In this document: positions 2,127-4,794 of the stretch, in pieces
Position numbering within the stretch: the first letter of the stretch is position 1
Layout: each line of letters begins with the position of its first letter
IMG/VR virus record: IMGVR_UViG_3300032225_001090
Location: 1-42,769 of that record
Length of the DNA stretch: 42,769 bases
From: a virus
Taxonomy: Duplodnaviria > Caudoviricetes
Direction: 5' to 3' (one strand)
Position numbers and translations under genes: made by a program
Notes under the pieces: generated by a model
Databases searched by the model: none
What the model saw: only the letters and a program-made list of their open reading frames with translations
Told to the model about the DNA's origin: nothing

Positions 2127-2137
2127 TTTCTATTTTG

Positions 2138-2210
2138 TGCCCTCGGCAGGAGTCGAACCTGCGACCAAGACCTTAGAAGAGTCCTGCTCTATCCTCTGAG
2201 CTACGAAGGC
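2138..2210 (-). tRNA. tRNA-Arg(TCT)
   Basis: GCCTTCG acceptor, TAGCTCAG D arm, GGACT-CTTCTAA-GGTCT anticodon arm, GGTTCGACTCC T arm; CCA not encoded. Confidence 0.95.
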
Positions 2211-2241
2211 AAAACAAAGGCTATCCGAAGATAGCCTTTGT
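2211..2241 (-). terminator. 12-bp cUUCGg hairpin with short U tract (intrinsic terminator or 3' stabiliser)
   Basis: ACAAAGGCTATC-TTCG-GATAGCCTTTGT-TTT immediately 5' of tRNA-Arg. Confidence 0.8.
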
Positions 2242-2304
2242 AGTAACCATGATCATCCTAAGGTAGCGAAGCCCGAATGGTAAAGGGGGTTAGCCTTACT
2301 ATCT
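2211..2304 (-). ncRNA. Candidate small RNA antisense to 23S rRNA H69-H71 region
   Basis: TATAAT at 2311-2316, 3' hairpin at 2214-2241, no ORF; plus strand 2243-2280 reads GTAACCATGATCATCCTAAGGTAGCGAA-GCCCGAATGG, resembling 23S ~1910-1937 and ~1964-1973 (E. coli numbering, from memory). Confidence 0.7.
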
Positions 2305-2347
2305 TAGTATATTATAGTTTTATTAAAAATATGCTCTATTTAATTAT

Positions 2348-2644
2348 TTATATTTCATTTTGGTCAACAGTTATAATGCCAAGTTCTCTGGCAGTCTTTT
2401 TGCCATCTTCAGACAATTCAATTATTGCATTTAAATCATCGTCATATGTTACATTAACATAACCTTTATTATATAAATCTATTAATGATTCATCAATATG
2501 TTTTGTATGCGCTTCCCATAAATCTGGAGCAAGCAATTCTGCTTTATCTGTAACTCTAAAAATTAATTCGCCAAATTCATCAACGCCAACTACTTCTACG
2601 GCACCGATTTCCATATAATAATCTAATCCGCTATCTTCGTTCAT
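2348..2644 (-). CDS. Hypothetical acidic phage protein
   Basis: Track ORF 2348..2665; start moved to MNEDS (2644) because the longer start overlaps the tRNA. Confidence 0.75.
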   Translation of the reverse strand: MNEDSGLDYYMEIGAVEVVGVDEFGELIFRVTDKAELLAPDLWEAHTKHIDESLIDLYNKGYVNVTYDDDLNAIIELSEDGKKTARELGIITVDQNEI

Positions 2645-2657
2645 ATTAACCCTTCTG

Positions 2658-2731
2658 TGCAACAAGTAGGACTCGAACCTACGACGACCAAATTATGAGT
2701 TTGGGGCTCTAACCAACTGAGCTATTGTTGC
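2658..2731 (-). tRNA. tRNA with CAT anticodon (Ile2 or elongator Met)
   Basis: GCAACAA/TTGTTGC acceptor, CCAAA-CTCATAA-TTTGG anticodon arm, GGTTCGAGTCC T arm; lacks initiator features. Confidence 0.93.
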
Positions 2732-2992: not shown

Positions 2993-4794
2993 ATTATTGT
3001 CATCCTATCCATAACGTCTTTTAAGTTTTCTGGTATTTTTGGTGCACGTACCATATTTTGTACGTATTCTTTTTCTCCATCAGGAGCTGTTCCAAAATCA
3101 TTATCATATGACATTGATTCATATGTATGTATATTTATTTCTTGATCATTATTAAATCGAGTTCTACTAATTGAATTAAAGATAGATCCACATACTGCAT
3201 CTGCAAGGTCTTTAGAACCCTTTCTTGGGTGATCAACTCTATCTCTCATAATTTTTAATTGAAGTAATTCATCTATAAGTAATGGTATATGTGGTCCATT
3301 TAATCTTTCTTCTAAAACAATCATAGCCATATCATCATAATGTTTTTTAGCAACAGAAAGAATTTCAGTATTAATACCATATTGCTTTAATTGCTGCATC
3401 ATATCATGAGAGTTCCATCTATCGAATGTACATACTCCAATATTGAATCCACGACTTTTTAATGAGATTATATAATCTTTTACCTCAGTAAAATCTACTG
3501 ATTTATCTGGTGTAGGAGTCCAATATCTAACTGCATCTACACTTACTATAGGTGCTGGCTGTGAATACTCATTAGTAATTTTTACATTTACCCACCTATC
3601 TACATGAGAAAGTGCTACAGCACAATGGTCGTGCTTTTGAGCCAAATCTACGTGAATATAGTATTTCTTATCTGGATCTGGCTTGAACCAATCTTCTAAT
3701 CTTCCAAATTGATCTACTGCTACATTGCCAATATTAAATGCCTTTTCAACTTTTTCTCGTGACTTAAAAAATGCATCAACAGCATCTGATGGCATACACG
3801 CAAATCTACCAAGTGCATCTACTGGATTTTTATAGAATGCTACCTTAAAATCATCTATCTTTCTTACTGGATTAATTTCCCATGTTGGTCTTTTAAGAGC
3901 AAACATCTTAGGATACTTATATGAAATGATATGATCTTCTTCCCATTCAACATCAAATTCATTCCCTTCCGTTCCATCTGGCAAATCTTCATCTAATTTA
4001 AAATGATGAGTTCTAACAATAACTTCTTTCTCCGCCACAACATCATCGTACCTTTGCTGAATATAATCATTTTTGTATCTAGGGAAAGAAAGCAAAATTA
4101 CTTTACCAAAGTCTGGAAAACGAGAATCTACTGATGCCCTATACATATCATATATTGCACTGCCAGTTTTTGCCTGCTCATGACCACTTGTATTTTCTGT
4201 AGCAAAACCTGAAATTTCATCGAGAATAATAACAATAACGTTATAACCTTCCCAAGCTTCTCTTTCAGAGTGACCAGAGTGTACTGTTATTGCCTTATCA
4301 AATTTAATCTCAGAGGCTTTTGGGTCATACCTGCCAACAAACCATGGAGACTTATCTATACGTGTCTTAAAACCCTTAAAGAAGACGTTATTAGCCTGCT
4401 GTGAGTTGATTGCAATGTTAATAATATCAATTGAATCTCCTGGAGGTTTTCCATAATAAGTAGCTGGATCTTTCAAGCACAATAGTAAATAAACTATATA
4501 GGCTACCGATATTGTGGAGCAATAATCTTTTCCAGATCCCTTACCTAATTGTGCAACAATTTCATTTGCAGTTTGTTTAAACATTCTTCTGCCTTCATCA
4601 TCGCCAAATAATTTGATGAGGGTTGATTCTTTATAAATTTGTGAGCTTTTTTCAATTAAAGTATACTGATATTCAGATAATGGAGGCAAGCCTAAATAAT
4701 CTGGGCTCTGAACAAATGTTCTAAGATCTACTGGCTTTTCTTCAAACTCTTCGCCATCCAATATGTCAATTAAATCATTAAAATCAAACGACAT
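2989..4794 (-). CDS. terL: Terminase large subunit
   Basis: Walker A LGKGSGKD, Walker B IILDE, RNase H-like HVDLA, TFDRW, KDLADA; likely start MSFDF at 4794. Confidence 0.93.
   Translation of the reverse strand: MSFDFNDLIDILDGEEFEEKPVDLRTFVQSPDYLGLPPLSEYQYTLIEKSSQIYKESTLIKLFGDDEGRRMFKQTANEIVAQLGKGSGKDYCSTISVAYIVYLLLCLKDPATYYGKPPGDSIDIINIAINSQQANNVFFKGFKTRIDKSPWFVGRYDPKASEIKFDKAITVHSGHSEREAWEGYNVIVIILDEISGFATENTSGHEQAKTGSAIYDMYRASVDSRFPDFGKVILLSFPRYKNDYIQQRYDDVVAEKEVIVRTHHFKLDEDLPDGTEGNEFDVEWEEDHIISYKYPKMFALKRPTWEINPVRKIDDFKVAFYKNPVDALGRFACMPSDAVDAFFKSREKVEKAFNIGNVAVDQFGRLEDWFKPDPDKKYYIHVDLAQKHDHCAVALSHVDRWVNVKITNEYSQPAPIVSVDAVRYWTPTPDKSVDFTEVKDYIISLKSRGFNIGVCTFDRWNSHDMMQQLKQYGINTEILSVAKKHYDDMAMIVLEERLNGPHIPLLIDELLQLKIMRDRVDHPRKGSKDLADAVCGSIFNSISRTRFNNDQEINIHTYESMSYDNDFGTAPDGEKEYVQNMVRAPKIPENLKDVMDRMTII

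Follow-up and report, generated by a model that had tools for sequence, protein, structure and literature searches.

The small RNAs of bacteria and phages that are encoded in trans and act by base pairing, like RybB and OmrA/B, resemble the phage unit described here in several respects. They are short and intergenic, expose a loop-borne or single-stranded seed, end in an intrinsic terminator and use imperfect pairing with G-U pairs. Their targets are mRNAs, whereas the best target found for the phage unit is the core of the 23S rRNA. It would be bound by 27 + 9 pairs, and the two or three arms leave out folded helices that lie between them. Hfq is not known from actinobacteria, and the known control of translation by phages proceeds via proteins or mRNA-binding small RNAs. 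Ribosome-associated noncoding RNAs, such as the rancRNA of Haloferax, are likewise proposed to act on the ribosome itself. Unlike the phage unit they are host-encoded, and they are not known to have long complementarity to 23S H69-H71. The box C/D and H/ACA guide RNAs of archaea and eukaryotes also carry two antisense elements, directed at rRNA stretches close to each other and separated by a gap where the rRNA can be modified or cleaved. Bacteria lack the partner proteins. The predicted phage RNA differs from box C/D guides in having no box D (CUGA); it contains one 6/7 box-C-like word and gives no Rfam match over threshold.

Antisense inhibition at the same helix has been achieved with a synthetic PNA against H69, which blocks translation (Kulik et al., 2017, cited in the review PMC12828698). 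This compound is man-made and has a single arm, and no natural counterpart is named in the accessible part of that review. One group of gut phages has the abiF RNA (RF03085) fused 5' to the same anti-23S core, but its motif is missing from the unit described here. A description of a phage RNA antisense to 23S rRNA was not found in the literature, with incomplete coverage of subscription journals and bioRxiv supplements, and no Rfam family matches the unit (2211-2316) at E up to 10. The first-pass annotation, which knew of no described phage anti-rRNA RNA, is borne out within this coverage. The Grad-seq paper on phage phiKZ names phage noncoding RNAs, and none of those in its accessible part is an rRNA complement (PMC8545117).

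Anatomy and surroundings of the unit

The window is the whole analysed stretch of 42,769 nucleotides, a viral record that is 39% complete. Nearly all of its long ORFs lie on the minus strand, in the order terminase, 82-aa ORF, tRNA-Met, 105-aa ORF, antisense unit, tRNA-Arg, ferritin-like gene, CHAP gene, HSP20 and a staphylococcal-nuclease-family gene. The terminase shares 61-63% identity with its counterparts in Streptomyces phages, so the host is likely an actinobacterium. A small-genome freshwater host is plausible, with a window GC content of ~34%. Upstream of the unit lies the 105-aa ORF (2348-2665, minus strand), which has no Pfam or PHROG family and marks the insertion site; the 3' end of the unit adjoins the gene for tRNA-Arg(TCT) (2137-2210, minus strand). 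The staphylococcal-nuclease-family gene and the ferritin/Dps-like gene (148-555 and 1668-2111) are located downstream on the same strand, and the Dps-like gene is present in only 4 of 80 relative loci. The leader of the HSP20 gene (1047-1124) contains a hairpin with a weak match to the ROSE_3 thermometer (25.3 bits, below the family threshold of 43), and similar leaders recur in relatives. An origin as a CRISPR spacer or att-site relic was rejected, since no repeat pair flanks the unit within 1900-2900 and no cas or integrase family was found among the ORFs scanned, which are a subset of those in the 39% complete record.

All parts of the unit are read on the minus strand. The putative promoter (2306-2316) consists of two overlapping -10-like hexamers, TATAAT at 2316-2311 and TATACT at 2311-2306, and shares TAATATACT with the homolog on contig L477. 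It has neither a TG extension nor a -35 element and was not among the predictions of a sigma-70 promoter scan. A 12/12 promoter is located upstream at 2772-2743, and read-through from it is an alternative source of transcripts. The second hexamer, common to the homolog, sits 6-7 nt ahead of the 5' hairpin; the predicted RNA may therefore start near 2299 and be ~88 nt long. The 5' hairpin (2280-2299) occurs in the MFE folds of both homologs with differing outer pairs, and its CUAACCC loop could pair with GGUUA within the RNA or with 23S H68 (~1851-1868). It is followed by arm B (2271-2280), a 9/10 complement of 23S 1964-1973 with a mismatch opposite A1966 in both homologs. The core of arm A (2254-2270) is a perfect 17-nt complement of Actinomycetia-type 23S 1921-1937 and is predicted to lie partly in the loop of an internal stem. 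Its extension over H69 (2240-2253, against 23S 1907-1920) contains two G-U pairs and mismatches opposite A1918 and C1920. At the 3' end, a 12-bp hairpin (2241-2214) with a cUUCGg loop and a U tail (2211-2241 in all) is called intrinsic-terminator-like by prediction. The 5' end of the unit can pair with the 3' arm of this terminator (inverted repeat I16), and a 7-bp version of this pairing is kept in L477, as judged by eye. The positions given before for TATAAT (2311-2316), the hairpin (2214-2241) and the adjacent tRNA-Arg all hold. Of the earlier picture of an ORF-free unit with its own promoter and a ~94-nt RNA, the terminator-like hairpin stands. A 61-aa plus-strand ORF (2277-2462), which we regard as a chance ORF, reaches into the 5' part, the promoter scan is silent and the RNA may be the shorter one.

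Complementarity to 23S rRNA and the homolog L477

Window 2243-2270 is identical to E. coli rrlB 23S 1910-1937 at 23 of 28 positions, among them an uninterrupted run of 15 nt (2256-2270 = 1923-1937). Nowhere else does the window share so long a run with E. coli 23S or 16S rRNA, the next being 12 nt. With the commonest Actinomycetota 23S type, found in 18 of 31 rows and in all 14 loci of a second set (11 closed genomes of 1.3-1.5 Mb and 3 other loci), the identity is 25/28 over 1910-1937 and 27/31 over 1907-1937 (window 2240-2270), with 17 nt exact. The rRNA alignment places window 2271-2280 on 1964-1973 (9/10), and the intervening 26 nt of 1938-1963 (loop 70 and H71) are absent from the window copy. 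Both the match and its split form, as proposed in the first-pass annotation, are thereby confirmed. The number of exact 17-mers expected by chance is 0.02 when the whole window is compared with 4.5 kb of rRNA, and 5e-5 when the comparison is made for one given unit of 95 nt. The window carries the CAUC version of H69, as in Actinomycetia, and the elements of marine podovirus-like and Vibrio phages follow the GGUC version. Its substitutions relative to 23S comprise two that are wobble-compatible and three that are not. Variant host sequences in which the two mismatches near the H69 loop would disappear are rare or missing: G1918 occurs in 1 record of the species collection, and none of 151 genomes from the small-genome order has U1920. 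These mismatches have no explanation in host variants and count against the explanation that we prefer below.

The duplex energy is -43.1 kcal/mol compared with a mean of -33.7 for the best sites of shuffled sequences, and 0 of 40 shuffles reached as low a value. Cofolding with 23S 1825-1983 places the RNA on both flanks of H71, which stays folded. The gain is -31.9 kcal/mol, compared with a mean of -4.3 for shuffles and -15.6 for the best of 100. The clamp on both flanks of H71 suggested earlier is thus predicted, in a model of naked RNA and not of the ribosome. A third arm against H68 is weakly supported by modelling. H68, 74 nt from the core, is the best operon-wide site for the 5' part of the unit, and the duplex of the 5' hairpin with it (-21.8 kcal/mol) was equalled by 32 of 1000 shuffles locally and by 20 of 40 operon-wide, so that the energy is marginal locally and ordinary operon-wide. 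The sense copy folds at -3.8 kcal/mol, compared with -16.5 for the corresponding host stretch, which agrees with the poor H69 stem noted before.

Relatives of the phage were used to define the insertion site. Among 651 terminase relatives, none of the best 80 carries the core within 5 kb (best 14/17). In 50 relatives the 105-aa ORF is present with sufficient flanking sequence; tRNA-Arg starts 0-7 nt past the ORF stop in 11 of them and at 200 nt in one, and in the window the distance is 137 nt. Because 11 of 50 relatives show this direct junction, the unit represents an insertion at a known empty site, and as judged from these comparisons it is confirmed as an inserted cassette of ~90 bases ahead of tRNA-Arg. 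A scan with the 15-nt actinobacterial core gave 10 matches with one true homolog, on contig L477, and this contig was also the sole homolog among 36 matches to the 5' hairpin motif. The 105-aa ORF as a search query found no locus, and blastn of window 2240-2290 found no match in cultured phages. Since the best 80 of the 651 terminase relatives are without the core within 5 kb and only one homolog was found, the unit is dispensable.

The L477 copy is located at the identical site, between the corresponding 105-aa ORF and tRNA-Arg. The 105-aa ORFs are identical at 50 of 99 amino acids, and in four neighbouring genes 59 of 120 four-fold sites (49%) agree. The antisense arms are identical at 34 of 38 positions (9/10, 16/17 and 9/11), and at 19 of 23 outside the search seed (binomial ~0.001 against the four-fold sites). 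The complementarity of the arms is kept above neutral conservation between the two homologs compared. Conserved complementarity in related phages, which the first-pass annotation proposed to look for, is seen in L477 but not within 5 kb in the best 80 terminase relatives. The terminator of L477 differs by one compensatory change (C-G/U-A) and one G-C/G-U change. The G-U pair of L477 would be a mismatch on the plus strand and so fits the minus strand only. The antisense orientation proposed at first is in line with this and with the genes, tRNAs and terminator on the minus strand. Both RNAs fold into a 5' hairpin, an inner stem with anti-1931-1937 in its loop, and the terminator. Common to both are CAUUC/GGAUG with GGG/CCU, UAACC/GGUUA, the 5' hairpin and the terminator; the stems ACCAU/AUGGU and UAGUAA/UUACUA named in the first-pass annotation do not appear in the two-homolog consensus. 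The base that faces A1966 as a mismatch is itself paired in the modelled inner stem, and the mismatch may be retained because of this pairing. Pair counts compared with shuffles gave 249/500, two sequences providing no power.

Antisense pieces in other phage lineages

Searches for a wider class used a gapped pattern (78 matches) and a core pattern that excluded the next base of the rRNA (64 matches). Intergenic antisense pieces against 23S 1905-1978 were found in about a dozen phage lineages that are unrelated to one another, among them cultured phages of E. coli, Vibrio and Staphylococcus. Altogether 155 matches fall into 50 clusters, and 18 intergenic clusters score 36 or more; the rRNA-like fragments L343 and L289 were left out before these counts, and several of the 18 belong to one lineage, with about a dozen being independent. 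A long ORF on the antisense strand lies upstream in 16 of the 18; in the remaining two, that strand carries an annotated endolysin or tRNAs. Strong terminators are located 3' of the antisense strand in 9 of the 18 clusters and 3' of the sense strand in 1. Among 62 substitutions, G>A exceeds A>G (16:4), but T>C does not exceed C>T (10:12), and the window itself has two compatible and three incompatible changes. The G-U bias anticipated in the first-pass annotation thus stands for the former pair of substitutions only. Predicted pairing declines from 19-23 of 23 rows at 1924-1937 to 8-11 of 22 rows at 1938-1942, in permissive alignments that include split and H71-covering forms; the design of the searches accounts for part of the high level at 1924-1937.

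The position relative to genes varies among lineages, being 5' of capsid genes, 3' of capsid genes or among tRNAs. In T4-like phages the piece follows the major capsid gene, within its 3' UTR and ahead of its terminator; neither arm differs among the 8 of 8 rows aligned, whereas the linker and flanks do. Podovirus-like phages have a longer form that also matches 1827-1838, skips H68 and resembles a shortened H67-H71 junction. A possible fourth arm comes from the 5' block at L161:3001-3030 and in related podovirus-like loci, where 12 of 15 rows have a further match to 23S 1686-1697. In temperate gut phages (~32 loci) an orphan Rfam abiF RNA is located directly 5' of the anti-23S piece, with no AbiF gene adjoining. 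At L125:2962-3017, L135 and ~30 similar loci, the abiF RNA and the core follow a Q-like gene and precede the terminase genes. Similar abiF-like RNAs without an anti-23S tail occur in cultured cyanophages and a roseophage (L388:1001-1037, L389:1005-1041 and L390:1001-1030), two of them among tRNA genes. An Rfam scan of 27 related loci matched only tRNA and abiF.

Cultured carriers include the Vibrio phages 1.031.O and 150E35-1. With 23S 1904-1979 as the blastn query, Arya, HeidiAbel_Bas97, a Sextaecvirus, two Guernseyvirinae and Vibrio PWH3a-P1 were found as well. In the two Guernseyvirinae the piece lies directly 3' of the endolysin gene, and several cultured carriers cover H71 rather than skip it. 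A hypothetical ORF is annotated across the site in HeidiAbel_Bas97, and the strand is less clear in Arya. The tRNA-Arg of phage Arya (L383:2017-2095) is annotated on one strand and placed on the other by the covariance model. At L347 (~2388-2440) a small hairpin of the linker between the arms occupies the position that H71 would have. Weak split matches in large AT-rich phages (L122, L137 and L196 at 3001-3029), between a prohead-protease-like gene and a terminator, score no better than chance. A junction-specific pattern scan gave 119 loci with L057 as the class member among the matches listed. A metagenome scan for short-gap versions gave 3 matches, two from the T4-like group and one inside a gene. 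In five pelagiphage and roseophage isolates, including HTVC027P, the core is absent at up to 2 mismatches.

As controls for the blastn search, 23S 2490-2565 and 2560-2635 gave 8 and 3 partial matches, all in coding genes, compared with 23 for the test region, of which 19 are without an annotated feature. A matched 16-mer control scan gave 46 matches; a score of 40 or more was reached by 3 of 26 control and 8 of 24 test clusters, counts that include 1 and 2 rRNA fragments, respectively. The contrast between test and control is real but moderate. One control cluster (L414:301-325, also L422, L435, L442, L451 and L455) is an intergenic match to 23S 2587-2610 between two ORFs, with the gene strand corresponding to the rRNA sense. 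Among the Actinomycetota loci, L352, L353, L361, L393-L395 and L403 have intron-like insertions in the 23S gene, at ~1917, 1923 and 1951.

Possible roles during infection

The explanation we prefer, at a probability of about 0.5, is that the predicted RNA would pair with H69-H70 where these are exposed, in 50S subunits that are free or immature, block subunit joining and leave loop 70 open to decay. In the 70S ribosome, the H69-H71 face of the 23S rRNA is buried. H68, H69 and H71 are described as the last parts to mature during assembly (PMC9638911). Unfinished or free 50S subunits would thus be the accessible targets. An RNA of ~88-94 nt would be transcribed from its own -10 element or by read-through, and its 3' end would be set by the terminator or by 5' processing of the tRNA. 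The loop of the internal stem (anti-1931-1937) is predicted to nucleate on the host 23S rRNA, upon which arm A would open H69 and H70 and arm B would take the strand after H71, with loop 70 and H71 looped out. With H69 and both strands of H70 taken up in the duplex, the normal interface would be out of reach for a bound subunit. Working 70S ribosomes would be spared, and idle or unfinished 50S subunits would fail to join the 30S subunit. In E. coli, RNase E cuts 23S rRNA after 1942 and thereby starts its decay (PMC4931109). Exposed 50S subunits may be cut near 1942 by a host nuclease, yielding nucleotides for the phage, or host translation may be curbed. Late expression would coincide with the need of the phage for ribosomes, which we count against this explanation, together with the rarity of the unit in its own family and the partial wobble bias. 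Phage-infected SAR11 cells lose rRNA, for which the authors favour phage-driven recycling; the accessible part of the paper names no mechanism (PMC11066056), and pelagiphage HTVC027P, one of its phages, is without the core at up to 2 mismatches. For the class as a whole, we propose more tentatively, and with slightly less confidence than for the window, that unrelated phages converged on anti-rRNA RNAs which invade the H68-H71 junction and leave loop 70 open, leading to an RNA-guided culling of idle or unfinished ribosomes.

The RNA might instead serve against host defence by pairing with 23S rRNA or its fragments, either to hide a defence trigger or to shield or splint H69-H71 against a ribosome-cutting nuclease. 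Patchy presence beside tRNAs is typical of counter-defence cargo, and the unit fits this pattern. The orphan abiF RNAs at the ~32 gut-phage loci point in the same direction, AbiF RNA being described as an antitoxin (review PMC12737573). Loop 70 is a target of MazF (review PMC5408214), and the H71-covering variants pair across part of it. We nevertheless consider such a role unlikely: pairing over H69-H70 should itself inactivate the subunit, and our searches gave no defence system keyed to an H69-H71 rRNA piece. The shield against loop-70 nucleases raised in the first-pass annotation is the weaker option, because the RNA of the window leaves 1938-1963, and with it loop 70, unpaired. Still less probable is a cis-acting switch or tether, in which binding of free 50S or pre-rRNA alters termination, stability or translation of the carrier transcript. 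The window unit is a free-standing insertion with its own putative -10, placement relative to genes differs among lineages, and the cofold predicts that pairing with rRNA frees the terminator rather than alters it. These points outweigh, in our estimate, the terminators that follow in many lineages, the frequent location in UTRs of capsid or lysis operons and the I16 pairing of the 5' end with the terminator arm, including its 7-bp version in L477.

The 23S H69-H71 region is a known intron hot spot. A sense-strand rRNA mimic or a site acting at the DNA level, like a protein decoy or a homing-endonuclease-type target, would agree with the intron-like insertions at 1917, 1923 and 1951 in several Actinomycetota loci and with the junction-like long podovirus version. 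This is very improbable, as the sense copy folds poorly, the antisense strand is the one that carries genes, tRNAs and U tails, the G-U changes of L477 fit the minus strand only, and the skipping of whole hairpins follows a logic at the RNA level. We give just as little credence to a captured scrap of rDNA or a chance match within an ordinary terminator cassette, the complementarity being functionless. The single homolog and the absence from the best 80 of 651 terminase relatives would be expected then, but not the conservation of the arms well above neutral sites, the recurrence in unrelated lineages with consistent strand, or the contrast to the control regions (8 and 3 partial matches, all coding, compared with 23, of which 19 are without a feature).

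If the preferred explanation, pairing of the RNA with exposed H69-H70, is true, phages would have a natural RNA directed at the part of the 23S rRNA core where the subunits join, and with it a previously unknown way of host takeover or counter-defence. Escape of the host by mutation would be hard, because the target is nearly invariant across bacteria. Such an RNA would also be a candidate cause of the rRNA loss in phage-infected marine bacteria, which is left open in the accessible part of PMC11066056. With cultured carriers, including the E. coli phage HeidiAbel_Bas97, the question is open to laboratory study.
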